IMG/VR virus record: IMGVR_UViG_3300045256_000567
Length of the DNA: 64,000 nucleotides
Source of the DNA: a virus
Reading direction: 5' to 3' (one strand)
Part shown: piece by piece, positions 27,319-61,892 of the stretch
Layout: each line of letters opens with the position of its first letter
Numbering within the stretch: the stretch's first letter is position 1
Translations under genes and position numbers: made by a program
The notes under the pieces: model-generated
Seen by the model: only the letters and a program-made list of their open reading frames with translations
The model's database searches: none
Told to the model about the DNA's origin: nothing

Positions 27319-28209
27319 TTAATCGGTAGCAGAAAAAAGCGTATGTTCACTTTTAACATTGTAGTTGATCCAAATACTTTCAACTCTTTGTGCAAAAGAA
27401 TGTACAGCCCCCTTTCCTTGTAGTTTACTTGATCTTGTTCTACCTGCTGCATGGCTTACAGTAGTTTTGTCAAACCTTGTCCATCCTTCGTTTTCTAACT
27501 TATCATAAATTTTATTTTTGTATCCTGAAAGCATTACTTTTCCTTTTACGTTTAATAGCAAATCTACTAGTTTTTCGTGATAGTCATCTGATAATTCATA
27601 CTTGTATTCTCCTTGTTTTCTTGTGGAATTTACATAAGGTGGATCAATATAAAAAAATGTTTTTGAAGAGTCCCAATACTCTATTGCTTTTAAAGCGTCT
27701 ACTTTATCAATTTGTACTCTAGATAGGCGTTCATGCCACCAATAAAGCATTTTTAAATGACTGCGCCAATTATTTACATTAGATGCCATCCCTCGGTTTA
27801 TTTCAGATAAAATACGCCCCCAATCACCTTCTGTACTTGCTTTACCTCCAAAACCTTGATTTTGTGTTACGAAAAATGCCCAAGCTTTATCAATATCGTT
27901 ATAATTTTCAGGGCATTCTAGAATTTTTAAAGCGCATACAAATTCCGATCTTGAATATGGTGTCCACAATAGCTTGTGTAGAAGATCGTCAAATGTATCT
28001 TTGTTCTGTAACACACGAAAAATATTTACAATTCTGTCGTCTATGTCGTTCAGCACTTCTACTTTGTAAGGTTTTTCTAAATTCCAGAACAAGTTTGCCG
28101 CTCCTGCAAATGGTTCTACATATATTTCAACATCATCATTAAAGGGTATGTAGTTTAGTATAAATTTCACCAAATTTCCTTTCCCCCCAAACCATCTAAA
28201 AGGCGCCAT
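27319..28209 (-). CDS. Dam/D12-class DNA adenine methyltransferase
   Basis: PFRWFGGK, YVEPFAG, LNDID and YIDPPY motifs; ATG at 28209 is the likely start. Confidence 0.9.
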   Translation of the reverse strand: MAPFRWFGGKGNLVKFILNYIPFNDDVEIYVEPFAGAANLFWNLEKPYKVEVLNDIDDRIVNIFRVLQNKDTFDDLLHKLLWTPYSRSEFVCALKILECPENYNDIDKAWAFFVTQNQGFGGKASTEGDWGRILSEINRGMASNVNNWRSHLKMLYWWHERLSRVQIDKVDALKAIEYWDSSKTFFYIDPPYVNSTRKQGEYKYELSDDYHEKLVDLLLNVKGKVMLSGYKNKIYDKLENEGWTRFDKTTVSHAAGRTRSSKLQGKGAVHSFAQRVESIWINYNVKSEHTLFSATD

Positions 28210-28370
28210 AATTCTGTTGGGTTTTTCTATGCTGTCAAGAATTTCTTTTGCTAATAGAGATTTGAATGCTAAAGTTTTGTCCAATTTTCTAAAGTATATC
28301 ACAAAAATTTTTCTATGGAGTGTTTTTCTCACCAAACCCACCACAGCAAGGGCCACTACTACCAAACCCA

Positions 28371-28492
28371 GTGACGACTCCCAATTCTAAAGAATTGGGC
28401 TTCTCGCAAGAAGCGAAGACTTTGTCAGAGCCTTAGCCAAGATATTTTGTTCTGCTGCGATATTCCGATGAAGGGTTGTATTGCATTTGTCA
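28371..28492 (-). mobile_element. IS200/IS605 right end plus the last ~105 bp of tnpB
   Basis: Aligns to 63003-63123 and to the 53107 mini-element. Confidence 0.85.
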
Positions 28493-28649
28493 TGTGGGAA
28501 ATTACATGTATCCCCGCTTTGAAAAGCGGGGAATTATAGCTCCCCCACACCCCCTCAATTTTTTAACCGTACAACACACCAAGCAATGGCGTTTACTTTT
28601 GAAAGTCAAAAAAATAAAAACCTCCCAATAGGGAGGTTACTTTGGGAGG

Positions 28650-28802
28650 TTACTTTACTCGAAACATCCAAGTATCTTCCTCTAAAGTACCGAAAAAGAA
28701 CCAAGTTTCCTTTCCATCCGTGACATGATGCATGTCGCTGTATCGCCATTTATCAGCTGACTTGATATCCTTCCAACGCTTAGCTTCGATGTACCACTTC
28801 AT
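28650..28802 (-). CDS. 50-aa early cassette protein (MKWYIEAKRWKDIKSADKWRYSDMHHVTDGKETWFFFGTLEEDTWMFRVK)
   Basis: Translated by hand; AAGGAGGT SD, promoter and terminator all present. Confidence 0.8.
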   Translation of the reverse strand: MKWYIEAKRWKDIKSADKWRYSDMHHVTDGKETWFFFGTLEEDTWMFRVK

Positions 28803-28846
28803 TATTACCTCCTTTACACAGAAAGGACATCCCTTCCTGTGACTTC

Positions 28847-28875
28847 ATAATACCACAATACAACAACCTTGTCAA
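28847..28875 (-). promoter_or_regulatory. Consensus sigma70 early promoter
   Basis: TTGACA-17-TATTAT with extended TG. Confidence 0.85.
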
Positions 28876-28956
28876 TACCCTTACGACCAATCGGCGGCTA
28901 GCGGGTATTGCGAGTATTGCTGTAGCGAGTAGGATGTGTTAGCGAGTTCATTATGA

Positions 28957-29028
28957 TTATACCATATACAGGAAGTTTAGTTGCATTCATCCTACACCTA
29001 AAGGTGTAGGTTTTCTGCAAACTGTTCT
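28957..29028 (-). mobile_element. IS200/IS605 left-end fragment
   Basis: TTAT|AGAACAGTTTGCAGAAAA followed by the CCTACACCTTTAGGTGTAGG hairpin and TGGTATAAT. Confidence 0.85.
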
Positions 29029-29116
29029 ATAAGATTACCGATCCTCCCTGTGAATGAGGCGTTTACTTTTGAAAATAGCAAGAAAAAAAAGAAACCCCCT
29101 TATTAGGGGGTAAAAT

Positions 29117-29323
29117 TCACTTTACCTGGAAGACAGCGGTGTTCAGGTATGGCAGGCCGAAACCTCCCCACACTTCTACGTATTCTCCTTCCTTGATCTT
29201 TACGATCAAGAAGGAGTAATCTTCCTGAACACCCTCTGCTTTCAAAATTTCTTGAATGTTTACTGAATCTTTCTCCAGAAAATAGCTATCATCCTGGAAA
29301 TCTTTGACCCTAGGTATTATCAT
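29117..29323 (-). CDS. 68-aa early cassette protein
   Basis: SD, promoter 29365-29393 and terminator ~29090-29113. Confidence 0.8.
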   Translation of the reverse strand: MIIPRVKDFQDDSYFLEKDSVNIQEILKAEGVQEDYSFLIVKIKEGEYVEVWGGFGLPYLNTAVFQVK

Positions 29324-29364
29324 GATTACCTCCTTCCAGGAAGGGTCACCCTTCCTGTGACTTC

Positions 29365-29393
29365 ATAATACCACAATACAACAATCTTGTCAA
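29365..29393 (-). promoter_or_regulatory. Consensus sigma70 early promoter
   Basis: TTGACA-17-TATTAT. Confidence 0.85.
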
Positions 29394-29582
29394 TAACATT
29401 ACAACCAATCAGCAGTTAGCATGTATTGTTGATGCTAATGTAGCGAGTAAAGTTTGCTAGCGAGTGCATTAGAAGAAACGCACCCATAAACGCAAGACCA
29501 AAATACGCAAAATCACTAATACCCCTTCCAAAAAGAGGGGCAAAGCGTTTACTTTTGAAAGGCGGAAAAAATAAAAATCCCC

Positions 29583-29723
29583 CTATTCGGGGGATTTTTC
29601 GGATTCCTCGGATTCTTTGTATTTAGAATCCTTGTATCCTTCTTGCTTCAATTCCTTGATAATTTCCTTAACCTCTGCGATAGAAATTCCGGATTCCATG
29701 ATTTCGTAAAACAGGTCTTTCAT
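29583..29723 (-). CDS. 46-aa acidic early cassette protein (MKDLFYEIMESGISIAEVKEIIKELKQEGY...)
   Basis: Translated by hand; AAGGAGGT SD; stop codon lies inside the terminator hairpin. Confidence 0.8.
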   Translation of the reverse strand: MKDLFYEIMESGISIAEVKEIIKELKQEGYKDSKYKESEESEKSPE

Positions 29724-29764
29724 TTTTACCTCCTTCACAAGAAGACTATTCTTCCTGTAATTTC

Positions 29765-29793
29765 ATATTACCACAATACAGCAATACTGTCAA
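29765..29793 (-). promoter_or_regulatory. sigma70 early promoter
   Basis: TTGACA-17-TAATAT. Confidence 0.8.
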
Positions 29794-29982
29794 TACCCAC
29801 AACACACACACACAATCAACGGCTAGCGTGTATTGCAAGTATTGCTGTAGCGAGTGGAGTGTGTTAGCGAGTGCATTAGGGTAAACTCACTCATAAACGC
29901 AGGACCAAGCAACATAAAATCGCTAATACCCCCCTGAGCGGGAAGCGTTTACTTTTAAAAACAGCAAGAAAAAAATCCCCCC

Positions 29983-30171
29983 CTATTTAGGGGGATCTTG
30001 ATTGAAATAATCGCTATCTAAATACCTAATAACAACGTCAGGGTACTCCTCCGAAACCTTCTTTAGAACATCATCAATCCGTTCAGCAGAAAGGACGCAC
30101 TTATAACGGAACCCCTCAATTCTCTCCAGAATTGACCAGCCATCTGAACAGGGAACTAGATAAAGATTCAT
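29983..30171 (-). CDS. 62-aa early cassette protein (MNLYLVPCSDGW...)
   Basis: AAGGAGG SD before ATG 30171; promoter 30212-30240. Confidence 0.8.
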   Translation of the reverse strand: MNLYLVPCSDGWSILERIEGFRYKCVLSAERIDDVLKKVSEEYPDVVIRYLDSDYFNQDPPK

Positions 30172-30211
30172 TACTTCCTCCTTACAGGAAGGCTGTCCTT
30201 CCTGTGACTTA

Positions 30212-30240
30212 ATAATACAACAATTCAGCAATGTTGTCAA
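30212..30240 (-). promoter_or_regulatory. Consensus sigma70 early promoter
   Basis: TTGACA-17-TATTAT. Confidence 0.85.
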
Positions 30241-30453
30241 TACCCTTACGACCAATCGGCGGCTAGCGTGTATTGTTTATGCTCATTTAGCGAGTAAAGT
30301 TTGCTAGCGAGTGCATTAGAATAAACGCACCAATAAACGCAACGCAAAGAATACCAAAATACAAAATCCCCCTATTGAACAGAGGGGGGGTGAAAAGCGT
30401 TTACTTTTGAAAGCCGATAAACAAATAATCCCCCCAATTCGGGGGGATTTTGT

Positions 30454-30657
30454 CTAATCCTCGATCCTCTGCAAAACCTCCTTACCAGTTTTAGGGTACT
30501 TGAACACCTTATACCGGATCTTGTTGTACTCTACAACCTTACCGGTATCCTGGGGTCCACTTGAAGCGCGACAATTAGGGCAAAGATCAGGAACCCGACC
30601 GACGCCTTTGTACTCAAAAATCGCGCCGCACTTCTTGCACTTCACTAGTTTTTCCAT
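30454..30657 (-). CDS. Small zinc-ribbon protein, copy 1
   Basis: CKKC...CPNC; promoter TTGACA-17-TATTAT at 30692-30720; terminator ~30427-30451. Confidence 0.85.
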   Translation of the reverse strand: MEKLVKCKKCGAIFEYKGVGRVPDLCPNCRASSGPQDTGKVVEYNKIRYKVFKYPKTGKEVLQRIED

Positions 30658-30865
30658 AACAACCCCCTTTGTAGGTTCTTCCTACACCTTTATAATAGCA
30701 TAATAAGTCATAGTTGTCAATAGGTATAATTTAGGTATACTTGAGGCATACTTGAGCGCGTATGCATTTACAAAAGGTTGATAACCTAGAAACTAAAAAA
30801 TGAGTAAACGCTTGGGGTACACAGATTTACAATACCCCCTGTATTAAAAAATACCCCCTTTTAAA

Positions 30866-31327
30866 TCAATCCAAAAACTCTAAATACCCGTCAAATACAC
30901 CTAATGAAAAAGCTTTCTTTCTAGAGGATACCAAGATATCTGCTGTATTACTGTATCTAGAGTGCATGGTATCGTAAACGATTCCTTCTATTACAGATTC
31001 ATTAGAAAGATATATTTTTACTTTTTTCCCGCAAATCTTTTTGCCGTTTGAGAAAAATAGATCTCTAGAGAGTGCGATAACTGTTTCTTTTACTTCTTTT
31101 AATTTCCCACAAGAAGTAGTTAATGGATCATTATCGGTTTCTTGCGAAGAAAGAGTATAGAAAGAAATTCTATTGAGAGGAATTTTATTATTTTCTATTT
31201 CGCGCGATTTTTCTTTAATAAAAAGCATTTTTCCTATTTCTTTTGAGAATTCTAAATATTCATGAGAAGAAGGCGAACTCGAGATTGCACTAGTTAACAT
31301 CAAAGTTAAAATCAGAGTTTTTTTCAT
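30866..31327 (-). CDS. Exported 3D-domain / double-psi beta-barrel (cell-wall glycosylase-like) protein
   Basis: Signal-like N-terminus; YT..ETD.DP..TS.G, IALSRDL, VYDTM and ADIL motifs. Confidence 0.7.
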   Translation of the reverse strand: MKKTLILTLMLTSAISSSPSSHEYLEFSKEIGKMLFIKEKSREIENNKIPLNRISFYTLSSQETDNDPLTTSCGKLKEVKETVIALSRDLFFSNGKKICGKKVKIYLSNESVIEGIVYDTMHSRYSNTADILVSSRKKAFSLGVFDGYLEFLD

Positions 31328-31408
31328 TTATACCTCCGCTACGTTCTACAGTACTAATACACGACAGTCTAACACATATGAAACAATACTACAAACTAAA
31401 GCGTTTAT

Positions 31409-31441
31409 TTTGATTTGTGCATTTTTTGCACAAATCAAAAA
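31409..31441. terminator. Intrinsic terminator hairpin
   Basis: TTTGATTTGTGCA-loop-TGCACAAATCAAA. Confidence 0.7.
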
Positions 31442-31443
31442 AT

Positions 31444-31968
31444 TCAAAACACTTCAAAAAAATTAAAATGACTATAACTGTAGAATTTAATTTCTTTTAT
31501 GTATTTATTTTCCTGAAAATTTATTTTTTTATTACTAAAAAGTAAAAATGAAGATCTAATAACACATCTTGTTTTTCCTTTGTATAGTTCTATAGTTTCA
31601 TTAAAGTCTATAGAATCTGCTATTTTGTTTAAATCATAGTTATATTCTTTTAAATCAAAAAAGGCGTTTTTTGTAACTTCACTATTTGGACTTTTATAGA
31701 TAGGTTTTTCATTATAAAATTTTATTTTCAAATCAATGTTTATTCCCGAAAAATCAAGAAAAAACTTTTCTAATAATTTAGAAAATTCGTTTTCGTGTAT
31801 CTCATAATAATTTGTAGTTTCTTTAATATTTGGGGCGTTTTTTTCTACATATACATAATAGATATTAGAATCTTTCCTGCATGTATTTATTGCGTAGAAA
31901 TTTCCAAATTTGGAAACGATTTTATCTAATAAAGTTTTTTTTAATTCAAGTAGCGAGTTTTTGCGCAT
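31444..31968 (-). CDS. C-terminal-Phe family protein (ends FFEVF)
   Basis: TATACT-6 nt-ATG leaderless start; similar to 34164-34685. Confidence 0.8.
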   Translation of the reverse strand: MRKNSLLELKKTLLDKIVSKFGNFYAINTCRKDSNIYYVYVEKNAPNIKETTNYYEIHENEFSKLLEKFFLDFSGINIDLKIKFYNEKPIYKSPNSEVTKNAFFDLKEYNYDLNKIADSIDFNETIELYKGKTRCVIRSSFLLFSNKKINFQENKYIKEIKFYSYSHFNFFEVF

Positions 31969-32017
31969 AGTTTCAGTATACAGCGTTTACTTTTAGAAAA
32001 ATTTTTCAAACCAAAAA

Positions 32018-32533
32018 TCAAAATATACTAACAACGTTAGCGGAGCGAAAGATAGAAAATTCAATAAAGTTTAAAATGTAGTCATCATTTAACTCACATC
32101 TACCGTTTGGGTACAAAAGTATAGATATTTTTACTAACAAATTTTTTACTTCTTTTATATCTTCCGGTTTTTTGAAGTTAATAGTTTTTAATCCATACAG
32201 AAGCTTTTCTAAATCTTTTCCAAAATCGGCGAAATTTAAAGATAGAATAGTATATTCCAACAAGGCATCATCGCAATATGGGTAAATAAATACTTTTGTT
32301 GTACCCAATCGATCTTTAATATTTTCTGTGTTAATAATTTCATTAAACCTGTCTGTACTTAATGGATAGTTTTCTGAATGACCGTCTGAATAGGTTACTG
32401 TAATACCGCGAATATAATTTGAGAAAAAATTATTTAAGTAGTTAGCTTCTAATGAATAATTTTTAACAATTTGAAGTAAAAAATAATCAGCAACTTCATC
32501 AAAAATATCATCAAAAGTTGTGTAGGTAAGCAT
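32018..32533 (-). CDS. C-terminal-Phe family protein (ends VVSIF)
   Basis: TTGACC-18-TACACT-5 nt-ATG. Confidence 0.8.
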   Translation of the reverse strand: MLTYTTFDDIFDEVADYFLLQIVKNYSLEANYLNNFFSNYIRGITVTYSDGHSENYPLSTDRFNEIINTENIKDRLGTTKVFIYPYCDDALLEYTILSLNFADFGKDLEKLLYGLKTINFKKPEDIKEVKNLLVKISILLYPNGRCELNDDYILNFIEFSIFRSANVVSIF

Positions 32534-32626
32534 GCTTTAGTGTACCACGACACATACTAGCAGGTCAAGTACACATATAGAGGAATAGCGTTTACTTTTG
32601 AAAAGTGGGAAAAAATAAAAACCCCC

Positions 32627-32746
32627 TTATTCGGGGGTTTTAGAATCCTTGGATTCAGAATTCTTTGATTCTGCATATCCTTCTTCCTTCAATTCCTTTA
32701 AAATCCATCTCGAATCTTCAATTGAGATACCAGATTCCATCAAATC
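32627..32746 (-). pseudogene. 5'-truncated paralogue of the 46-aa gene at 29583-29723
   Basis: Reads DLMESGISIEDSRWILKELKEEGY...KTPE*; begins exactly at the mini-IS right end. Confidence 0.8.
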
Positions 32747-32912
32747 GTGACGACTCCTAATTCTAAAGAATTAGGCTTCTCGCATTTAGCGAAGGCTCCG
32801 TCCAAGCCATTATCGGTATTTTCTTATTTTCCCGATAATTACCTTGAATCTTATGATTCAAGTACCTACCAGCATTTTCAGCTTTGTAGGATTTGGTGTG
32901 CTTATCTTGCAC
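32727..32912 (-). ncRNA. Putative TnpB omega-RNA (guide GATTTGATGGAATCTGGTAT)
   Basis: TGGTATAAT promoter, several hairpins and the tnpB 3'-end scaffold; guide assigned from known IS200/IS605 biology. Confidence 0.55.
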
Positions 32913-32990
32913 AAGTTCATTATACCATAGAATTTCAATTTTTGCATTCATCCTACGCCTAAAGGCGTAGGTTTTCTGCAAATCAATGTT
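32747..32990 (-). mobile_element. 244-bp non-autonomous IS200/IS605 derivative; probable stand-alone omega-RNA cassette
   Basis: Left end after TTAT, -10 promoter, structured core, right end TCAC. Confidence 0.85.
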
Positions 32991-33154
32991 ATAAATGTAA
33001 AGTCAGTTAGCGGGTGTTATTGTGGTAAACGCACCAATAAACGCACCGAGAAGAATACCAAAACACAAAACCCCCCAATCCAAAAAGAGGATGAGCGTTT
33101 ACTTTTGAACACCCATAAACAAATAATCCCCCCAATTCGGGGGGATTTTGACTA

Positions 33155-33361
33155 CTAGTCAATACGCTGCAAAACCTCCTTACCAGTTTTAGGGTACTTG
33201 AGTACCCTATATGTAACGCCGTTATGTTCTATCACCCTTCCAGTATCTTGAGGACCGCTTGCCGCTCTACAATTAGGGCAGAGATCAGGCACCCTGCCGA
33301 CACCGGCATACTCGAAGATTGCCCCACACTTCTTGCACTTCACGAACTTTACATTAGGCAT
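33155..33361 (-). CDS. Small zinc-ribbon protein, copy 2
   Basis: Close paralogue of 30454-30657; promoter 33397-33425. Confidence 0.85.
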   Translation of the reverse strand: MPNVKFVKCKKCGAIFEYAGVGRVPDLCPNCRAASGPQDTGRVIEHNGVTYRVLKYPKTGKEVLQRID

Positions 33362-33599
33362 GACTCACCTCTCTTGTAGGTTCTCCCTACACCTTTATAA
33401 TAGCATAATAAGTCATAGTTGTCAATAGGTATACTTGAGGCATACTTGAACGCGTATGCATTTACAAAAGGTTGCTAACCTAGAAACTAAAAAATGAGTA
33501 AACGCTTGGGGGGGTGAATTTAAACTAATACCCCCATTCGCTAAAATGGGGGTAACTAATAGCGTTTACTTTTTAGGCGCGGATTTAAAAAAATTTAAT

Positions 33600-34106
33600 C
33601 TAAAAAAGTTGTACAACTGAAAATGTCCTATTTATGCGTATACTTATTCCAAGTACTTTACAGTCTTTGTCTTTCTTTAATATTTCATTTAGTGATATAT
33701 CTTTTTTAATACTGTAAAACATAGAAACTCTTATATTTATTTCCCCGTTATGTATTTTTTCTATTTCTCTTTTAGCTTCCGAAAATCTATCTACTAGAAA
33801 GAAATCAAATAATCTTTCTTCATTATGAGAAAAAAAGTTATTTAGAGTATTTACGTATGTGTCTTCCTTTGTGTAAGAAACAACAATATCTACAGATTCA
33901 AATTTTATGTATTTTTTATATTTTCTTTCTATCATTTCTATTGTTTTTTTATCTACTAAAGTAAACGGCATTGATACGTCATCTAGTCTCTCCAATTCCA
34001 ATAAATATAAATCCTTTTCCTCCTTAGAAAATAGTTTAATAAATTCGCTTTCAAGTTCATAGTTAATTACCTCCACTAGTAAATTTGCTTTATTTATTAT
34101 ATTCAT
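33600..34106 (-). CDS. C-terminal-Phe family protein (VVQLF)
   Basis: ORF with G-rich SD. Confidence 0.8.
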   Translation of the reverse strand: MNIINKANLLVEVINYELESEFIKLFSKEEKDLYLLELERLDDVSMPFTLVDKKTIEMIERKYKKYIKFESVDIVVSYTKEDTYVNTLNNFFSHNEERLFDFFLVDRFSEAKREIEKIHNGEINIRVSMFYSIKKDISLNEILKKDKDCKVLGISIRINRTFSVVQLF

Positions 34107-34163
34107 TTTTCCCCCCTTCTAGTTTTGGTACACTATATATACTATAGATATATGGAGCAGTGG

Positions 34164-34685
34164 CTAGAATAAGGTTGCTGTATCTATAAACCTGTACATA
34201 TAATAAGATAAATTTTTTATATACTCATTTTCCATTATTCTTATACCGGCGTCGCTGTAAAAAATAAATGAATACCTTACAGTGAGTTTATTTTTGCTAG
34301 TTACAGACTCTGTAATATCTAAAGGTTCAAAGGATTCAAATACTTGTTCTATGTTATAGTCATAATCTTCTAAACTAAATTCTGAATATGATTTGTATAA
34401 AGGAAAATGTGCCTGTGTGAATGGATTACTATCGTATATTTGTATTCCAACTTCTACTGCCTCAAAATCAAAAAGATATTTATCTAATAGCTGTAAAAAT
34501 TCTTCTTTATCAATATCATGTTCAAGTTCTTCTGTTTCCTCAAAGCGAAAATGAATGAATTCTGTAAAAAGTTTAAATAATTCTTTATTTTTATTATTAA
34601 TATTTAAAATTTGATTTTCAGTAATTGCAGATTTAATACTTTTTAAAACTTTGCTTTCTAGCATATCAGTGGCTTCAGGCATCAT
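34164..34685 (-). CDS. C-terminal-Phe family protein (TATLF)
   Basis: ORF with GGGAG SD. Confidence 0.8.
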   Translation of the reverse strand: MMPEATDMLESKVLKSIKSAITENQILNINNKNKELFKLFTEFIHFRFEETEELEHDIDKEEFLQLLDKYLFDFEAVEVGIQIYDSNPFTQAHFPLYKSYSEFSLEDYDYNIEQVFESFEPLDITESVTSKNKLTVRYSFIFYSDAGIRIMENEYIKNLSYYMYRFIDTATLF

Positions 34686-34701
34686 ACAGTTTTTCCTCCC
34701 T

Positions 34702-35109
34702 TTAAAACAGCTCTCTAGTAAGTATAATTATATTAAAACTCACAAATACTTTTTTACAGGGTACATCTTCAAAAATTTTTTTATCATTTTTAACTTCACA
34801 TGAAAAATGAAAAATAGTTTTAAAATAATTTTCTTTAATCATTTTTAAAGTATGCAAATGAACAAAGTCATTTAGTGTTTTTAATTTTTTAGTTGATGAA
34901 AACGTGGATAAGGTTTTTGTTAATTCAGTTTCGTCAATAACATAATTTCTAAAGGATATTTTTTTTACAATAGCATCATTGGCGTTATTTCTATATTTAA
35001 CGTCGGGAATATATATAACTTCGTGTACGTAGGTGCTATAATTTTGATAAATAGTAGATTTAGCAGTGTTAATTAACTCATTTTTTATCTCTTCTATAGT
35101 TCTGTTCAT
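34702..35109 (-). CDS. C-terminal-Phe family protein (TRELF)
   Basis: ORF with GGAGG SD. Confidence 0.8.
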   Translation of the reverse strand: MNRTIEEIKNELINTAKSTIYQNYSTYVHEVIYIPDVKYRNNANDAIVKKISFRNYVIDETELTKTLSTFSSTKKLKTLNDFVHLHTLKMIKENYFKTIFHFSCEVKNDKKIFEDVPCKKVFVSFNIIILTRELF

Positions 35110-35123
35110 TTTTATCCTCCCTC

Positions 35124-35708
35124 TTAAAACAGTTCTTTTACATCTACGAGATACGTGAACATAACTTCTATGGGCAGTGTTTTTATGTGTTTTATTTCTA
35201 TGTTATTAATTGGGTACCAAGTAACACTTGTTTTGTGGTTTTTTAAAATAGAATACAGCTCAAATACATCTTCTTTATTTCCTATCAAAGGAAATTCTAT
35301 ATCTAATCTAAAAAAATGACAATTAAGAAAATCTTGTAATGAAAATACATATCTTGTCTTATACACTTCAATTATTCTATAAAATGCTTCCCTTAACTTA
35401 AAGTTAGCAAGATTTGTTTTTTTATCAAATACAGTAAAGTCTCTGAAATATGACATTATATCAACAAAAATATTATTTTCTATTACCTCAAATCTATTTA
35501 ATATATCTGTTAGTTTTTCGTATTCGTTATTTTTTATAACCGCCCACAATAAAGATCTATTATCTCTTTTTTTATCAATAAATTCTATAGTAATTTTTTC
35601 AGATATAGAGTTGGGAACTAAATAAAAATCTCTAAAATATTCTTCCGTTAAACACACCAAATCATTTCTTAGTGTTTCGGATATTTTTTTTGTTTCATCA
35701 AGCTTCAT
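35124..35708 (-). CDS. C-terminal-Phe family protein (VKELF)
   Basis: ORF with SD; paralogue of 35733-36338 (WYP/WFP, FFRL/FFQL). Confidence 0.8.
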   Translation of the reverse strand: MKLDETKKISETLRNDLVCLTEEYFRDFYLVPNSISEKITIEFIDKKRDNRSLLWAVIKNNEYEKLTDILNRFEVIENNIFVDIMSYFRDFTVFDKKTNLANFKLREAFYRIIEVYKTRYVFSLQDFLNCHFFRLDIEFPLIGNKEDVFELYSILKNHKTSVTWYPINNIEIKHIKTLPIEVMFTYLVDVKELF

Positions 35709-35732
35709 TTACACACCTCCCCCTACAAACTT

Positions 35733-36338
35733 CTAAAATAATTTGTTTATTTTTGCTCCGAATAAAAACTCTATTTCTACAAAAACATTGTTGCTATTAT
35801 TGAAAGTTATTTCTTTATATGGAAACCAGGACGATTTTATAGTGTTGTTTCTAAGAACGTTAAACAATTCAATCATGTAATTTGTGTTAGTTCTTTCTAA
35901 GAATACAGATTCTAAGCGCAATTGAAAAAATTGTTTTTCTAGATAATCTTCACTTAGAATATGTATACTTTTGTAACTGTCCATTAGTTCGAAAAAACTT
36001 TTATTTATATCAAAATTATGGATTGGCTTAATTAAATCATCAAAAAATATGTAATTGCTGTAATATGTATTTAATTTAGTGTTAACATTTTTTTGTACTT
36101 CAAGTTCATTTAAAATATCTTCAGCTAATAACAAAATATCTTTACAGGTAACTAATTTTGTTATAGTTCTATCAATCCCGCTTCCTAAAAGACGATCTCC
36201 ATTGTCAATAAATGTTACAAAAATATTTTCTTGGCACAAGCTAACACAATTATTAAAATTATCAAAATATTTTTCAATAGCGTAACAAAATTCATTTTTA
36301 AAATGATAAGCTTGATTTTTTATTTCGCTAAAGTTCAT
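35733..36338 (-). CDS. C-terminal-Phe family protein (INKLF)
   Basis: ORF with AGGAGG SD. Confidence 0.8.
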   Translation of the reverse strand: MNFSEIKNQAYHFKNEFCYAIEKYFDNFNNCVSLCQENIFVTFIDNGDRLLGSGIDRTITKLVTCKDILLLAEDILNELEVQKNVNTKLNTYYSNYIFFDDLIKPIHNFDINKSFFELMDSYKSIHILSEDYLEKQFFQLRLESVFLERTNTNYMIELFNVLRNNTIKSSWFPYKEITFNNSNNVFVEIEFLFGAKINKLF

Positions 36339-36352
36339 GGTTTACCTCCTGT

Positions 36353-36781
36353 TTAAAACAAAGGTAAAATATTAAACAAATGTTCTTCAAACACATGATA
36401 ATTTTCATCATGAATGTCTAAAGAAATTTTAATTTTTCCAACTTTTTGAACTTCAGAAATTTCTTTATAAATTTTTTCAATGAATTTATAAAAGTCATTT
36501 ATTTTATAATCAAAGTAAATGCTAGAAATATAAAATGATTCTCCGCTTTTAGCGAAATTAGACGTACCATCCCAAAGTACAAAGCTAATATTATAAGAAA
36601 TGTGCAAGTCTTTTAAATTCTTTTTTTCTTTTCTTGGACTTACATATTCGTCTATTTTTTTTAGAAAGTGAGTATTTACATATTTATTTAAATCAAATAA
36701 TTGAATTCTATAAGGTTCAACTATATCTTTTAATCTTTTTACTTCTTTTAAGATTTCCTGGTTTTTGTTAGGCTTGTACAT
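36353..36781 (-). CDS. C-terminal-Phe family protein (ILPLF), leaderless
   Basis: TTGACT-17-TATCCT-6 nt-ATG at 36781. Confidence 0.8.
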   Translation of the reverse strand: MYKPNKNQEILKEVKRLKDIVEPYRIQLFDLNKYVNTHFLKKIDEYVSPRKEKKNLKDLHISYNISFVLWDGTSNFAKSGESFYISSIYFDYKINDFYKFIEKIYKEISEVQKVGKIKISLDIHDENYHVFEEHLFNILPLF

Positions 36782-36860
36782 GACTATAGGATACACCCAC
36801 AGCAGTCTACAGTCAAGCCTGCTGCTACTTAGCGTTTATTTTTTTCGCCTAAAACTAGTA

Positions 36861-37469
36861 TTAAAAAATATTTTGTAAAGTAATGTTTTTATAAAAAATA
36901 CAAGTTACTAAAAGATTCCCCGCTTCAAGTATTTCAATCATCATACTTTTGTCAAATTCATTAAATGAATCCGTGGAAAAAAATATATCTTTATTGTTTT
37001 CTATAAAGTTTTTTATTTTATTTTTTTCATTTTTTAGTTCAAAGTCTACGTGAGATTGTATAAAGTTTATATTTATATTTGATTTTATACAATCATTGAT
37101 TGATTTATTTATTTTTAAAAGAATATTCTTTTCGTTTCTATGTAATTCCTCATTTAAATAATTAAAGTTATTTTGTACGTCTAGGGGTCCCTCTTCAACA
37201 GATATGTATGTGTATATTTTTGAATAATCTACTTTTATTTTTCCTATAGAATTTAGTACTTTTCTGTATAGAGGATTGTTTGCATCTACTGAAGCTATAA
37301 ACAATTCTCCGTAATCTCTTCTATTTATATCATTTCTATTTTCTACTTCATCGAAGAAAATATAAAAAATATCTTCTTCATTTAAAATTACTGATGGAAG
37401 GTTTTTATTAATTATTTTTTTAAGGGATAAGTGAAATCTTTCAGCAATTCTTTCTAATTTTGTTAACAT
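36861..37469 (-). CDS. C-terminal-Phe family protein (LQNIF)
   Basis: ATG 37469 preceded by GGGG SD. Confidence 0.8.
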   Translation of the reverse strand: MLTKLERIAERFHLSLKKIINKNLPSVILNEEDIFYIFFDEVENRNDINRRDYGELFIASVDANNPLYRKVLNSIGKIKVDYSKIYTYISVEEGPLDVQNNFNYLNEELHRNEKNILLKINKSINDCIKSNININFIQSHVDFELKNEKNKIKNFIENNKDIFFSTDSFNEFDKSMMIEILEAGNLLVTCIFYKNITLQNIF

Positions 37470-37487
37470 AACTAACCCCACAAAAAA

Positions 37488-38048
37488 TTAAAAAATCTCA
37501 TCTAATTTTACCGTTATATAACCAGTAAATTTTACAATACTTGAATCATTAAAGTTAGTATTAAAAATTTCATTACGAATTTCGTACCACACTTCATTAT
37601 TTATTTTATCATTAATAGACAGAATGTATTTTCTGAAAGATTCAACGAGGATTGAATCAATAGTTATATCTTTATATTCATTAGAAAATGAACATAACAC
37701 TCCTTTACTAGTAGAATTAGATAGATGTTTTGCTAATTTATTTAACCCCCTATAATAAATTCCGGTAGGTCTGGTTACTTTGTTCAATCTATAGTGCATG
37801 TATTTAGTACCATTTAATATCCTAACTGAAACACTTTTTTTGCTGAAAAGAAAGTTGTTGAAAAAAGACAGTAGTAAATAAAACTCTTTAGTTCCCAAAT
37901 CAACAGAAATACACCCATTTAGTCCACTAAAATTTTTTCTTTTATAGAAGCATAGCGATAATGTTTTTTCTAAAGTTATAATTAAAAATCTTGGAAGTGT
38001 TTTTTTGAATTTTTCTACAACAATCTCTATATCCGTTTCTTTTATCAT
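37488..38048 (-). CDS. C-terminal-Phe family protein (LDEIF)
   Basis: Clear paralogue of 38062-38619. Confidence 0.8.
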   Translation of the reverse strand: MIKETDIEIVVEKFKKTLPRFLIITLEKTLSLCFYKRKNFSGLNGCISVDLGTKEFYLLLSFFNNFLFSKKSVSVRILNGTKYMHYRLNKVTRPTGIYYRGLNKLAKHLSNSTSKGVLCSFSNEYKDITIDSILVESFRKYILSINDKINNEVWYEIRNEIFNTNFNDSSIVKFTGYITVKLDEIF

Positions 38049-38061
38049 TATCCCCCCTAAT

Positions 38062-38619
38062 TTAAAAAAGTTGTTCTAGTTTTAATGATATGTAACTAGT
38101 ACAAAACATATCACTTGAATTTATAAAGTAAGGTCGCAAAATTTCTTCATTAAGGTCTCTAAATAAATCGTCACTTATCTCTCCCTTTAAAGAAGAAACA
38201 TAATTTACAAATGAATTAACAATTATTGGATCCAGGTCTATGTGTGAATATTTATGAGAAAGTGTGCAAACTAATTGTTCATTACTTATACTAGATAAAT
38301 TTTCTACTAATTTTTTTATACCTCTATAATAAACCTTATTATTGTTTCTCACAATATCGATTCGCTCATATGAAAAATCATGTCCCTTTAAAATTCTTAT
38401 ATTTATACTTTGTTTGCTAAAAAGACGTTCCTTAAAAAATGATTGTATTAAATCAAATTCTCTGGTTCCTAAAGTTACAACAATAATTCCTGTAACATCA
38501 TTTATATATCTTTTTCTGTAAAAATTAAAAACCATTACTTTTTCTAATTCAGTAATCAAAAAATTAGAAAACCTGATTTTAAACTTCTCTGCTACTATTT
38601 CTATATCACTATTATTCAT
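38062..38619 (-). CDS. C-terminal-Phe family protein (LEQLF)
   Basis: DIEIV.EKFK, LGT.EF and YYRG shared with the neighbouring gene. Confidence 0.8.
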   Translation of the reverse strand: MNNSDIEIVAEKFKIRFSNFLITELEKVMVFNFYRKRYINDVTGIIVVTLGTREFDLIQSFFKERLFSKQSINIRILKGHDFSYERIDIVRNNNKVYYRGIKKLVENLSSISNEQLVCTLSHKYSHIDLDPIIVNSFVNYVSSLKGEISDDLFRDLNEEILRPYFINSSDMFCTSYISLKLEQLF

Positions 38620-38660
38620 TTTGTCCTCCCTTTTTAGAGAAGTTCTTCTAAGCTTTTCTT

Positions 38661-39143
38661 TTAAAATAGCGGAGAAAAAGAAAATTGTACTTTCATAAAA
38701 TAAAGAACTTTTTTTGCCTCTTCAATATTTTCTGAAGGAAATAAATTCTTCAGTTCTTTTAATTTTTTCTCGTCAATAAAAAAATGAGATGTAAGATAAA
38801 AATTTACTAATATAGCAGTATCGGCACTATTATAAAGAAAAAATCTAATGGTATCAAAAAATCCAGTTTCAGAATTGAAACATTTTATCTTTGATTTATT
38901 TTCTTTGTGAGAAACAGAAAAATCATAATATGAAGGAGGTACATTAGAAAATAAAGTAGATATAACAATATAATTCTTATCTGTATTTTTTATTTTCTCA
39001 TTTTTAATTTTTTTGTAGCGCCCTTCGTCATATCTGTAAAATGAAATACTTATAATATCAAGTTCTGTACTAACATAATATCCTTCCGCAAAATATTTTA
39101 TTTTTTGTTGTATTCTTTCTTTTTCTTTTATCATTATTTTCAC
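38661..39143 (-). CDS. C-terminal-Phe family protein (FSPLF)
   Basis: ORF in operon. Confidence 0.8.
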   Translation of the reverse strand: MKIMIKEKERIQQKIKYFAEGYYVSTELDIISISFYRYDEGRYKKIKNEKIKNTDKNYIVISTLFSNVPPSYYDFSVSHKENKSKIKCFNSETGFFDTIRFFLYNSADTAILVNFYLTSHFFIDEKKLKELKNLFPSENIEEAKKVLYFMKVQFSFSPLF

Positions 39144-39148
39144 CCCCT

Positions 39149-39721
39149 TTAAAAAAGTTCTTCTAAAGAAGTTTCAACAAAGAATGTTATTTCTATTTGA
39201 TTCGTACGCTTAAACTCCGTTGAAGATATCTTCTCTTCAATCTTATTGAATAGACTATTGCTAATGTTATTTTTTAGAGCAAGCAAATTTTTCTTTATTT
39301 TCTGCAATTCTTCTGGATACACGAATAACCAAAAAACCTTAAAGAAAAAACAATGTACATCTTCTTTCGATCTATCTAAAAAATTTGCTATACGCTTATG
39401 TCCTGTATAATATTTATTATCTTTTATGGGATATAAAATTTCGGTTTTATAATTTCCCGGTTGACTAATTCCTATACGAATATGGTTTTCGCTATATGTT
39501 GGTTTTATTAATATAGCGTCAATAACCTTATTTATAGATTCTACATTCTCTTCTACGTATAAATACCAGGAATTATTGAATCTTAATAAATCACGGGTTC
39601 TTTCATAAAATGAGATTTTTACATAAGTTTTATGAATAGTGAGAAAGCGATTTTTCTGAATTTTTTTACTTATCTTCTTTACCTGATTTTCTAATTCCAC
39701 AAGCAGGCTGTATGCATCCAT
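39149..39721 (-). CDS. C-terminal-Phe family protein (LEELF), leaderless
   Basis: TTGACT-17-TATGCT-6 nt-ATG. Confidence 0.8.
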   Translation of the reverse strand: MDAYSLLVELENQVKKISKKIQKNRFLTIHKTYVKISFYERTRDLLRFNNSWYLYVEENVESINKVIDAILIKPTYSENHIRIGISQPGNYKTEILYPIKDNKYYTGHKRIANFLDRSKEDVHCFFFKVFWLFVYPEELQKIKKNLLALKNNISNSLFNKIEEKISSTEFKRTNQIEITFFVETSLEELF

Positions 39722-39904
39722 GTCTACAGCATACAGCCTGCAAGTGCTACAGTCAAGTGTAGCACGTCATAGCGTTTACTTTGGCGTAGCGTTTACTTTG
39801 GCCTAGCAGCTAACCTAGTACACGCCATAGAACAATATATAGGAATAGCGTTTACTTTTTGAAGTCTTTTTCTTTCGATTTGCGAAACAAAAAATATTCC
39901 GAGT

Positions 39905-40224
39905 TTAAAACATACTCCTTATTTTTACCTCTACGCCAAAAGATATATTTGTGACGACTCCTAATTCTAAAGAATTAGGCTTCTCGCATTTAGCGAAGGC
40001 TCCGTCCAAGCCATTATCGGTATTTTCTTATTTTCCCGATAATTACCTTGAATCTTATGATTCAAGTACCTACCAGCATTTTCAGCTTTGTAGGATTTGG
40101 TGTGCTTATCTTGCACAAGTTCATTATACCATAGAATTTCAATTTTTGCATTCATCCTATGCTTAAAAGCGTAGGCTTTCTGCAAACTGTTCTGTAAATT
40201 GTTTATTTCATCAAAACCATTCAT
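39905..40224 (-). pseudogene. Remnant of a C-terminal-Phe family gene whose middle is replaced by the mini-IS
   Basis: MNGFDEINNL before the left end and NISFGVEVKIRSMF* after the right end. Confidence 0.65.
39951..40193 (-). mobile_element. 243-bp non-autonomous IS200/IS605 derivative; probable stand-alone omega-RNA cassette
   Basis: Core identical to the 32747 copy; left end follows TTAC; guide AAATATATCTTTTGGCGTAG. Confidence 0.85.
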
Positions 40225-40238
40225 ATGTTTATCCTTTT

Positions 40239-40796
40239 TTAAAATATTTCTTCCATTTTAAATTTTGTAGATAAAGAAACTTCTAAGAAATTTAATCGTT
40301 TTATAAAATCCTCTTTTCTCAATAGATTAGTTATTTTTTCAACTGTTTCTGTGTTTATTTTATTGTTATGAATGTTTATAAAATCTTTTAGCGATCCAAA
40401 AAACTTTTCGTCAATATCACAATCTCCACCTATCGTGAGGTAAAATAAAAGCTTATCTTTGTTTTTGCAAAAGTTTTTTATTTGTTTTAGTCCTTTATAT
40501 CTATTAGTTTTTTTATTTTTTTCCAATATAAACTTATAATATTTGTCGTTGTAATATATATTTATATATATAAGATTATTTGTGTTAATGTAGCTCTCTA
40601 AAAAAGAAAGTAATATATCAAAACCTTCATCTTTTTCTGCTATATGTATATCTTTACCATATACAAGAGAGTAATCTTTATTATTTTTGTGCTTACAATA
40701 AAAAGTAATTGAAATAGATTTAGTTTCATTAGAGTACATTAATTGATAAACTGTATTTTGTATTTTTTCTATAGCTTCCTTTATTTCTTTATACAT
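40239..40796 (-). CDS. C-terminal-Phe family protein (MEEIF)
   Basis: ATG 40796 with AGGTGG SD; paralogue of 40826-41392. Confidence 0.8.
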   Translation of the reverse strand: MYKEIKEAIEKIQNTVYQLMYSNETKSISITFYCKHKNNKDYSLVYGKDIHIAEKDEGFDILLSFLESYINTNNLIYINIYYNDKYYKFILEKNKKTNRYKGLKQIKNFCKNKDKLLFYLTIGGDCDIDEKFFGSLKDFINIHNNKINTETVEKITNLLRKEDFIKRLNFLEVSLSTKFKMEEIF

Positions 40797-40825
40797 AATA
40801 TTTATCCACCTTTCTAAGTTAGCAA

Positions 40826-41392
40826 TCAAAACATTAGTTCAGCTTTTACCCTAACATACAGATTAGATTCTAAGAAGTTTATTATTTCTTCAATATTGGC
40901 GTTCTTTACAATTTCATCTAGTTGTTTGAATATTGTTTTATTTATATAGCCCCTTGAACTATATAAAAAATTTTTTAGGGCCATAAAAAACTCTTTATCA
41001 ATATCCTCCAATCCTATCAATCTAAAATGAAAGAAAATAGATTCTCGCCCCTTACAAAATCTTATAATATCCTTCATTCCTCTACTATATTTACCAGTTC
41101 TTTTATCTTTGGTTAATGTAAAGCCGTAGTAAATATTATTTGCTTTTACATTAATAAGTATACGGTTGTTTATTTTTATAAAATTATCTAAAAATTGTAA
41201 AACTAGATCAAAACCTTTATAATTATCTTGTAAATATACACTTCTTCTATATGTAACATAATATTTTCTACCCTTTTTATGTTTATGATAAAACATAAAT
41301 GAACAATCTTTTTCTAAATCGTGAAAAATATGTTCAGGAAAATTACTCTGTATTGCTTGTAAAGCATTTTGTATTTCTTTATCTAAAATCAT
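40826..41392 (-). CDS. C-terminal-Phe family protein (AELMF)
   Basis: GFD..L.FL and FCK motifs shared with neighbours. Confidence 0.8.
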   Translation of the reverse strand: MILDKEIQNALQAIQSNFPEHIFHDLEKDCSFMFYHKHKKGRKYYVTYRRSVYLQDNYKGFDLVLQFLDNFIKINNRILINVKANNIYYGFTLTKDKRTGKYSRGMKDIIRFCKGRESIFFHFRLIGLEDIDKEFFMALKNFLYSSRGYINKTIFKQLDEIVKNANIEEIINFLESNLYVRVKAELMF

Positions 41393-53106: not shown

Positions 53107-53356
53107 GTGACGATTCCAAATTTTAAGGAATTAGGCTTCTCGTAATTAACGAAGACTTTGTCAGAGCCTTAGCCAAAACATTTTGTGCTGATGAAATATC
53201 CCGATGAAGGATTGTATTGCATTTGTCACAGGTATTGGTTGTATACAGACGGTATTTGAAAGACTTGATCATTACTAAACTATATTGTATCATATTCAGA
53301 GTACTCGTTTGCGTTCATCCCATACCTAAGGGCGTAGGTTTTCTGCAAACTGTGCT
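53107..53356 (-). mobile_element. 250-bp internally deleted, decayed tnpB element
   Basis: Left end and first ~12 tnpB codons joined to the last ~35 codons and the right end. Confidence 0.85.
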
Positions 53357-53980: not shown

Positions 53981-55211
53981 GTGACGACTCCCAATTCTAA
54001 AGAATTGGGCTTCTCGTAATTAACGAAGGCTCCGTCCGAGCCTTAGCCAAGATATTTTGTGCTGCTGCAATATCCCGATGAAGGGTTGTATTGCATTTGG
54101 CGCAGGTATAAGTACGTATCCAAAGCGGATGCTTTTCTCGATTACCGCAGACAGGACAATCTTGGCTTGTGTATTTTGGGTCTACTTTTATTACTTGCCT
54201 ACCAGCCTCTTCCGCTTTGTAGGCAAGTATTGCTAGGAATTGAGCCCAACCTGCATCTAGGATACCTTTAGCTGTTCTAGTTTGGGCAAGTTGTTTTATA
54301 TCTAGGTCCTCGTGTACTATAGTGCCATATTTATTTACCAAGTCCTTTGCTACCTTGTGATGAAAATCCTTTCTTTGGTTTGCTATTTTTCGATGTACCT
54401 TGGCAACCAATTTCTTAGCCTTGTTTCTTCTGTTGCTACCAGGTTTTCTTTTTGAAACTATTTGTTGTGCTTTGGCAAGCCTATCTTCAGAATTCTTGAA
54501 ATACCTAGGAGCAGGAACCATTTCACTGTCAGAGGTGGTTAGGAAGTTTGGATTAGTACCAAGGTCTATTCCAACTGCATCTTGGTTTACAGTAAGTCTT
54601 TTTGGTTCTGTGATACAGGTGAAAATTATATACCATTCATCATTCTCCCTTTTTATAGAAGCCGTCTTTATTTGACCTTCAACAGATCTATGAAACTTGC
54701 ATTTAATAGAACCAATCCTATGAACCAAAACTCTGTTTTTGCCTTCTTGAATCTTGATTCCTGTTACACTTGCTTGAGGAAAGGTGAAACTATCGTACCT
54801 ATTTTCACCTTTGAACCTTGGAAAACCAGGTGTTTCACCTTTCTTAATACGCCTAAAAAATCCTTGGTAGGCTTTGTCTACCCTTTTCAGTACATCCTGA
54901 AGAACCTGTGCATTTACATTCTTGTATTCTGGACGCTCTGTTTTTATTTTAGGCAGTTGTTTATCTTGTTCATAGTAGGTGATAGACTTTTTGTAGTTTT
55001 TGTACAATTCCCTTCTTTGTTCCAAAGCAGTATTGTACAGTTGACGACACAGAAACAAGGTTTTCTCTAAATCCTTGATCTGAGGCTTAGTTGGATACAG
55101 TCGGTATTTGAAAGACTTGATCATTGCTACCTATCTACATTATACCATATTCAAAGCGTTTGTTTGCATTCATCCTACGCTTAAAAGCGTAGGCTTTCTG
55201 CAAACTATGCT
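53981..55211 (-). mobile_element. tnpB-only IS200/IS605 (IS1341-like) element, copy A, 1231 bp
   Basis: TTAT|left end with hairpin; right-end hairpin ending TCAC; no tnpA. Confidence 0.9.
53997..55124 (-). CDS. tnpB: RNA-guided endonuclease TnpB
   Basis: FKYRLYP, RuvC-I GIDLG, RuvC-II HEDL, Zn finger CPVC/CAKC, RuvC-III HRD.AAA.NI. Confidence 0.95.
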   Translation of the reverse strand: MIKSFKYRLYPTKPQIKDLEKTLFLCRQLYNTALEQRRELYKNYKKSITYYEQDKQLPKIKTERPEYKNVNAQVLQDVLKRVDKAYQGFFRRIKKGETPGFPRFKGENRYDSFTFPQASVTGIKIQEGKNRVLVHRIGSIKCKFHRSVEGQIKTASIKRENDEWYIIFTCITEPKRLTVNQDAVGIDLGTNPNFLTTSDSEMVPAPRYFKNSEDRLAKAQQIVSKRKPGSNRRNKAKKLVAKVHRKIANQRKDFHHKVAKDLVNKYGTIVHEDLDIKQLAQTRTAKGILDAGWAQFLAILAYKAEEAGRQVIKVDPKYTSQDCPVCGNREKHPLWIRTYTCAKCNTTLHRDIAAAQNILAKARTEPSLITRSPIL

Positions 55212-55227
55212 ATAATTCTAGTAGCTT

Positions 55228-55944
55228 ATGGCAAATAATGTAAGAGACATTCTAAAAATTTTTAATATTCTCGAGTATAAATTTTATAATAAACAATTTA
55301 TTAAAATAAATAATACTATTGGATATAAAATCAAAACAACTAGAGCTATTAATTTTTATTATGAAATTAAAGATAAAGAACAGAAAGTCAACGAAAATTA
55401 TGAAAAAGAACTATTTTTATATAAGGCAAAAAAAGAGATTCCTTATAAGGTAATTTTTTTAAATAAAGATTTTTTGTTTTATAAAGAAACAAAATATTTA
55501 AATAACTTAGTTTCTGCTGCTCTAGACATGAGCGCAGAAAGCTGTAATTTATTTTATTTTAAACATTGTCAGCTTTTAAAAGATTTTACTGATATCTTAA
55601 ATACAAAATTTTTTGTATCGTCAGAAATTAAATCTGAAGTAGACGAAGATTTTGTAAAAAAATGGATGTCTTTAATTAGTGAAATAATTAAAAAATCTTC
55701 ATTAAATTCAGAAATTAATAAAGTTATTTTGCCTCTTGAAAAAAATTACTATAGAACAAATAATGTGGACATGTATGAAGTTAAAGAATCTGTACTTACT
55801 TTGAGAACACCACCTATAGACGATAAATCTATACACAAATATAAAGAATTATCTAAATTATTAAATAAAGATTTTGAAATAATAGAAAATGTAAGATTTA
55901 TATTTTCTTTTAAGAGAATATACTATGCGTTTAATATATTTTAA
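55228..55944 (+). CDS. C-terminal-Phe family protein (AFNIF) with a borrowed MANN start
   Basis: First 13 nt and leader are identical to those of the 58526-61876 gene. Confidence 0.75.
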   Translation: MANNVRDILKIFNILEYKFYNKQFIKINNTIGYKIKTTRAINFYYEIKDKEQKVNENYEKELFLYKAKKEIPYKVIFLNKDFLFYKETKYLNNLVSAALDMSAESCNLFYFKHCQLLKDFTDILNTKFFVSSEIKSEVDEDFVKKWMSLISEIIKKSSLNSEINKVILPLEKNYYRTNNVDMYEVKESVLTLRTPPIDDKSIHKYKELSKLLNKDFEIIENVRFIFSFKRIYYAFNIF

Positions 55945-61876: not shown

Positions 61877-61892
61877 AAGCTACTAGAATTAT

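Follow-up and report, generated by a model that had tools for sequence, protein, structure and literature searches.

Two gene-less IS200/IS605-type elements with a predicted TnpB guide-RNA core in a probable relative of the phiYS40/TMA Thermus phages

The window analysed here, a 64,000-nucleotide (nt) stretch of virus DNA (IMG/VR record IMGVR_UViG_3300045256_000567), contains two nearly identical segments on its minus strand, here called mini1 (32747-32990) and mini2 (39951-40193). An earlier note on this DNA had described them as stand-alone genes for the guide RNA (omegaRNA) of the protein TnpB, with a rebuilt, compact scaffold of about 165 nt and with different guides. The question raised by the locus is whether these segments are guide-RNA genes of the phage or small mobile elements. 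In the reading that we consider probable, mini1 and mini2 are copies, recently transposed, of a PATE-type IS200/IS605 element that is non-autonomous and derives from the tnpB-only insertion sequence (IS) of this phage; both have a promoter-like box and a full 62-nt omegaRNA core, and their guides would be used in trans by TnpB. The central idea of gene-less omegaRNA elements used in trans is already published: minimal PATE-like elements were reported often to encode omegaRNAs that are used by TnpB made elsewhere (Meers et al. 2023, PMC10055086).

Mini1 and mini2 are exactly identical over 209 nt (32747-32955 and 39951-40159), and the extended match covers 236 nt at 98% identity. The identity breaks off exactly past the right end, ...GTCAC (at 32747 in mini1 and 39951 in mini2), and the flanks are unrelated. 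Mini1 lies directly after TTAT (32991-32994) and mini2 after TTAC (40194-40197); the coordinates of every motif in mini2 are those of mini1 plus 7204. Read along the minus strand, each element begins with a left-end subterminal hairpin, CCTACGCC-TTTA-GGCGTAGG (32952-32971 in mini1; 40156-40175 in mini2, with one mismatch), followed by the left-end-derived extended -10 box TGGTATAAT (32919-32927; 40123-40131), which in the resident elements stands 14 nt before the tnpB ATG. Next come the hairpin H0, CCTAC..GTAGG, which stems from the tnpB codons Y-K-A-E-x-A-G-R (32865-32890; 40069-40094), a leader segment without detectable homologue (32809-32864; 40013-40068) and the 62-nt omegaRNA core with the right end (32747-32808; 39951-40012). 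The leader segment folds into two perfect hairpins, CTTGAATC-ataa-GATTCAAG (32843-32862) and TTATCGG..CCGATAA (32810-32838). In the core of mini1, GGCTTGGACGGAGCC (32794-32808) is followed by the stem TTCGC..GCGAG (32779-32793), the right-end hairpin (32756-32775) and the tail AGTCGTCAC (32747-32755). Read as RNA, the order is hairpin 1 (loop GACG), stem 2, AAGCC, stem 4 (UUUA loop) and tail, and the CGUC of the tail pairs with the GACG loop of hairpin 1 as a pseudoknot. Subterminal hairpins are present at both ends of the minis, without terminal inverted repeats. Their open reading frames (ORFs) have only 71-85 amino acids (aa), with no Pfam match at or above the curated cut-off. On the plus strand, the left-end hairpin followed by TTTTCTG (32952-32980) scores as an intrinsic-terminator-like site.

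Six elements of the IS200/IS605 type were found in the window, each with a left-end motif paired with a right-end motif. TTAT or TTAC directly before the left end and GTCAC at the right end are present in all six, the flanks are not duplicated as in a target-site duplication, and a covariance model of the right-end RNA core matches once in each element, over the whole length of the model and with the end of the match exactly at ...GTCAC. Two of the elements are residents with a tnpB gene, A (53981-55211, minus strand; tnpB 53997-55124, core 53981-54042) and B (61893-63123, plus strand; tnpB 61980-63107, core 63062-63123), which are 94% alike and which also carry the left-end and right-end motifs of the minis. 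The other four lack tnpB: mini1, mini2, a third mini-element (mini3, 53107-53356, minus strand) and a unit at 28371-28560 (minus strand). Mini3 is collinear with the residents and is thus a simple internal-deletion derivative of their type, with a partly degenerate core; mini1 and mini2 differ from it, as the earlier note had claimed, in that their middle is unmatched. That note was also right about the identical core of about 210 bp and the clean hairpins of the middle. The combination of both ends, a target tetranucleotide and near-identical copies in unrelated contexts is the signature of mobile non-autonomous IS200/IS605 elements. The cis sites for a Y1 TnpA transposase are kept, with the left-end hairpin after TTAT or TTAC and the right-end hairpin before ...TCAC. 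The minis are hence complete mini-transposons of the PATE type and not stand-alone genes, which makes selfish retention and homing the default reading.

TnpB A and TnpB B (375 aa each) match OrfB_IS605, a Cas12f1-like TNB domain and a helix-turn-helix domain. They share 64-67% identity with TnpB from Thermus phages TSP4, phiLo and T72, and 61-66% with the Thermaceae copies. Residues 3-362 align to residues 5-372 of ISDra2 TnpB (PDB 8BF8, 8H1J; E = 1e-55), and the D, E and D motifs of RuvC are present. Both genes look catalytically intact, as the earlier note had supposed.

The conservation of the core was examined in an alignment of the right ends of 32 distinct relatives from the window, Thermus phages, Thermaceae, Deinococcus, Mycobacterium and several metagenome-assembled genomes. 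The shared architecture opens with hairpin 1, the loop of which has 5 nt; then follow stem 2 and its variable stem-3 insertion, an invariant AAGCC, stem 4 closed by a 4-nt loop (most commonly UUUA) and a 9-nt tail. Pairing is found in 95.8% of the cells, and 15 of 21 pairs show compensatory changes on both sides; in stem 4, six of eight pairs covary. For the pseudoknot, in which the hairpin-1 loop meets tail positions -6 to -3, the share of paired cells is 98.4%, against at most 55% in slid controls. Its partners include GACG/CGUC, GACA/UGUC, GAUG/CAUC, GAUU/AAUC and GACU/AGUC, and at two of its pairs both sides change. Lacking stem 3, the core of the window elements is the shortest of the set, at 62 nt.

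Homology between minis and residents begins exactly at hairpin 1 (62 nt, 90%), with 56 of 62 positions shared. The six differences from element B comprise one C-to-U change that gives a G-U pair, three changes in the stem-2 loop and one compensated stem-4 pair, and all are structure-neutral; a G-U pair is more in keeping with RNA than with single-stranded DNA. Since the differences are confined to wobble, loop and compensated positions, the scaffold is conserved and not rebuilt. Its 5' edge is placed at hairpin 1 on three grounds. Resident residue 362 lies opposite ISDra2 residue 372 in the protein alignment, and ISDra2 residue 373 corresponds to omegaRNA position -117 (PMC10097598); several Thermaceae copies have an inserted hairpin directly upstream of hairpin 1; and in one phiLo mini-element the TGGTATAAT box stands 7 nt before hairpin 1. 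In ISDra2 the RNA region from -231 to -117, which overlaps residues 336-373, is dispensable (Nakagawa et al. 2023, PMC10097598). By this comparison the scaffold would be the conserved last 62 nt, and the novel middle would be a 5' leader upstream of it, corresponding to the stretch that the ISDra2 RNA can do without. Covariation and the ISDra2 comparison thus replace the 165-nt scaffold of the earlier note with a conserved 3' core.

The core model was also matched in Thermus phages, with nine matches in phiLo, one each in YS40_Isch and TSP4, and none in phiYS40 or TMA. Three of the phiLo cores are associated with tnpB genes, one of them split (153230-154359), and at least four are tnpB-less (MH673673, 31334-31398, 45561-45624, 84188-84252 and 150419-150492). 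The YS40_Isch copy is tnpB-less, has the same H0 hairpin and carries a GGCTT form of hairpin 1. A full-length core-model match is kept in every tnpB-less derivative seen (four in the window, at least four in phiLo, one in YS40_Isch), with lower scores and a degenerate hairpin 1 in mini3, the 28371 unit and the phiLo copy at 45.6 kb. In the biochemistry of IS608, TnpA needs only the right-end hairpin region. This pattern of retention argues for selection on the RNA. A DNA search of a phage collection with mini1 gave no match at E <= 1e-5, viral contigs scanned for exact patterns of the mini core and of the middle gave none, a scan of one metagenome for the middle hairpin gave two chance matches only, and an Rfam search of the window found no family.

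The predicted guides are the 20 nt directly past the right ends, as named earlier, and they differ between the two minis: 32727-32746 (minus strand) for mini1, inside a truncated small cassette gene, and 39931-39950 (minus strand) for mini2, in an intergenic flank. Within the window, neither guide has a near-match adjacent to the transposon-associated motif (TAM), in agreement with the absence of self-cleavage suggested earlier; the match at 15 of 20 positions reported for guide 1 in the paralogue at 29.7 kb was confirmed (TTTTAC followed by GAAATCATGGAATCCGGAAT). In the proposed mechanism, transcription from the TGGTATAAT box would yield an RNA of about 104 nt of leader, the core and the flank. 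TnpB from element A or B would bind the core in trans, the leader would be trimmed, and the first 12-20 nt of flank would serve as guide. The complex would then cut TTAY-adjacent copies of the insertion site that are free of the element, either after excision or in a co-infecting relative, and recombination would restore or spread the mini-element.

Several points weigh against this interpretation. The promoter claimed in the earlier note is present as a promoter-like box only, as a motif, and no -35 box was found near TGGTATAAT in the minis. The window shows no enrichment of TGNTATAAT, with 11 occurrences against 7 expected. No tnpA was found within the window; a Y1 TnpA is encoded by phage YS40_Isch and by Thermus parvatiensis, and a transposase supplied in trans is plausible. 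A scaffold of 62 nt would be shorter than any reported processed TnpB omegaRNA (79-466 nt, PMC10278001), and its true 5' end may lie further upstream. Mini1 and mini2 are so nearly identical that they give no evidence of selection on the leader. The mini1 site, finally, is rearranged and not a clean insertion. Its right flank speaks for mobility, in that it shows homology to a paralogous cassette gene from the point directly behind the TTAC of that gene. Its left flank (32991-33160, aligned with 29740-29930) follows the upstream block of the paralogous cassettes only to ...ACTTTAC. About 140 nt are gone, comprising the promoter, the 5' hairpin, the ribosome-binding site and the first eight codons, so that the 37-codon remnant downstream (to 32630) is a truncated gene. 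The missing stretch could be an adjacent deletion or a left-end rearrangement.

It is also conceivable, if unlikely, that the minis are inert, recently copied relics that TnpA moves or once moved, without a functional guide RNA, in which the core persists through youth and through the need of TnpA for the right end. Identity over 209 nt would leave no time for decay, and hairpin 1 and the pseudoknot are in fact partly degenerate in mini3 and the 28371 unit. TnpA is not known to need hairpin 1 or stem 2, however, and yet these differ from the residents only by wobble, loop and compensated changes, next to a leader in which no similarity is left. Inertness would also have to accommodate the full-length core-model match in every tnpB-less derivative of three phages.

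The leader itself is unusually well folded. Its 104 nt have a predicted folding energy of -31.5 kcal/mol, against -12.8 +/- 2.8 for shuffled sequences (z = -6.6); for the equivalent coding stretch of the residents z is -1.2 to -2.0. Only H0 is homologous to tnpB: its 26 nt match the resident gene at 22 positions, with a score of 32 against 20.4 +/- 2.5 for shuffles, and for the rest of the leader neither the resident tnpB nor any of about 130 fetched loci shows significant similarity. Both the tnpB origin of the CCTAC..GTAGG stem and the foreignness of the middle, as stated before, are thereby borne out. An origin of the middle as the 3' end of another tnpB, named in the earlier note as a refutation, may still apply, but no such tnpB was found among the loci searched. 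A decayed tnpB 3' end (..YRE.. for HRD) was rejected as the source of the leader, its alignment to the resident tnpB being no better than that of shuffles (p = 0.6-0.9).

H0 lies at about tnpB codons 298-310 (62877-62910 and 54194-54227 in the window), and its stem in the residents has 9 bp (CTTGCCTAC..GTAGGCAAG). In a set of 31 tnpB genes and minis, the hairpin around these codons pairs in 87% of the cells, against at most 45% in slid controls, counts that are inflated by shared ancestry and coding constraint. Pair types alternate between CG, GC and AU at two positions. H0 covaries across Thermaceae, phage, Asgard and Firmicute copies and is kept in non-coding mini-elements; in the non-coding YS40_Isch element its stem is lengthened through a compensating change (ATACCTAC/GTAGGTAT). 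Such retention with compensating change points to an RNA element, of undescribed role. Identity of H0 with the inhibitory mRNA region of AmaTnpB was rejected, as the positions differ (nt 825-875 in AmaTnpB, about nt 895-930 for H0).

Taken furthest, these observations might mean that the leader, made of H0 and the new perfect hairpins, is a functional RNA module, kept or rebuilt, that forms an undescribed control layer of TnpB guide RNAs together with a scaffold of about 62-65 nt, and that the minis are a dispersed multi-guide set for phage-against-phage homing. In that case the leader might act on TnpB loading, processing or stability. We regard this joint proposal as doubtful.

That the minis are domesticated phage guide-RNA genes, whose dispersed omegaRNAs aim TnpB at competing phages or host DNA as a step toward a CRISPR-like multi-guide weapon, is improbable. 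The excess of omegaRNA cores over tnpB genes in phiLo (nine to three) and the strong leader fold would suit it, and other Thermus phages have made a relative of TnpB, Cas12r, a working CRISPR effector (bioRxiv 10.64898/2026.04.20.719267). Against it, both transposon ends are kept, so that the guides are whatever flanks the insertion; guide 1 falls in a small cassette gene that belongs to the phage itself and is broken, and no target of either guide was found within the window. The units of phiLo and YS40_Isch also keep the left end. For these units, GGGGGTGTGGGGGAGCTATAAT with its hairpin was considered as a general phage promoter of guide genes without a left end, and was rejected: it stands upstream of every phiLo tnpB and is thus the left end of that IS variant, so that the units are mini-transposons too. 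Very improbable, lastly, is a role of the minis mainly as mobile promoter cassettes, in which the TGGTATAAT box of the tnpB-free left end drives genes past the right end, for although the minis are co-oriented with the downstream genes and mini1 replaced the promoter, ribosome-binding site and start of a cassette gene, only a truncated ORF without ribosome-binding site and then a terminator follow mini1, and the retention of a complete RNA core would be left unexplained.

Read as trans-acting mini-transposons, the minis are a well-supported further example of a described kind of element and not a new system. They resemble the PATE-like elements of Geobacillus stearothermophilus (PMC10055086) in that they lack a protein gene, have ends in common with tnpB elements of the same genome and retain the omegaRNA. 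They differ in being carried by a phage, in a TnpB of the ISDra2/Thermaceae clade, in a leader remodelled into four hairpins and in a very short core. With the PATEs of Haloquadratum walsbyi and other archaea (PMC3119063) they share shortness, the absence of a protein, derivation from IS200/IS605, palindromic ends and the presence in several copies, a likeness of described features; those elements were defined before TnpB guide RNAs were known.

The omegaRNA of ISDra2 (PMC10097598; PDB 8H1J, 8BF8), in which the stem-1 loop pairs with positions -5 to -3 and stem 4 has a UUUA loop, is similar in the pseudoknot of stem-1 loop and 3' tail, in stems 2/3 and in the UUUA-loop stem 4 before the guide. 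The two TnpBs align over their full length, and the region upstream of the scaffold is dispensable in ISDra2. Unlike ISDra2, with a scaffold of 116 nt, the window elements have one of 62 nt without stem 3 and with a 5-nt stem-1 loop, their TnpB is without the C-terminal domain of ISDra2, and the TAM is predicted as TTAT/TTAC instead of TTGAT. The Lalka Thermus phage Cas12r-CRISPR system (bioRxiv 10.64898/2026.04.20.719267) is likewise a TnpB-descended RNA-guided nuclease in a Thermus phage, but it uses an array and CRISPR RNAs with an effector of 564 aa, whereas here single guides are bound to a transposon, without repeats or spacers. The minis thus provide a clear phage example of the known gene-less IS200/IS605 elements with TnpB guide RNAs, recurrent in phiYS40-like Thermus phages. 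In this thermophilic clade of TnpB the conserved scaffold appears, from the alignment, to be only 62-65 nt long, which, if confirmed, would be of interest for compact, heat-stable genome editors. The remaining interest lies in this very short natural scaffold and in the conserved intragenic H0 hairpin.

The window is AT-rich (24-40% G+C), and its proteins match those of rare phage families. One of them has matches confined to the Thermus phages phiYS40, TMA and YS40_Isch (48% identity). On account of these protein matches the phage is most readily placed as a distant relative of the phiYS40/TMA group of Thermus phages. A clean empty site for the YS40_Isch element was looked for in phiYS40 and TMA but not found, the region being a replaced segment with no simple insertion. 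Two of the phiLo minis lie directly downstream of the methyltransferase genes phiLo_40 and phiLo_141.

The 28371 unit has a left end of the phiLo type (GGGGGTGTGGGGGAGCTATAAT and hairpin), a tnpB 3' remnant, the core and the right end, and lies directly upstream of a D12 methyltransferase gene (27319-28365). It is part of a composite stretch (28371-29032, minus strand) that begins with a window-type left end bearing the TGGTATAAT box (28956-29032), continues with a complete small-gene cassette, consisting of a 50-aa ORF (28650-28802) and its terminator, and ends with the parts of the unit just listed, of which the phiLo-type left end lies at 28533-28554 with its hairpin in addition. Left ends of two types are thus found side by side in this phage. 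Residents A and B share 32 nt of flank past the left end (55196-55243; 61861-61908), which includes the start ATGGCAAATAATG of two divergent genes, one at 55228 on the plus strand and one at 61876 on the minus strand. In the outward direction, the junction of left end and TTAT in A and B is TGCTATAAT, 11 nt before the start codons of these genes.

Tandem small-gene cassettes occupy 29030-33570 (minus strand), where the segment 30322-30817 is duplicated at 33026-33511. The parts of a cassette are a TTGACA/TATTAT-type promoter, a CAGGAAGG..CCTTCCTG hairpin, a strong ribosome-binding site, an ORF of 50-90 aa, a C5/G5 terminator and a AAAAGTAAACGC box. A long run of diverged ORFs of 160-206 aa, mostly ending in ..ELF, ..KLF, ..PLF or ..EIF, extends over 31444-52805 (minus strand), and mini2 is located between two of them (39149-39721 and 40239-40829).

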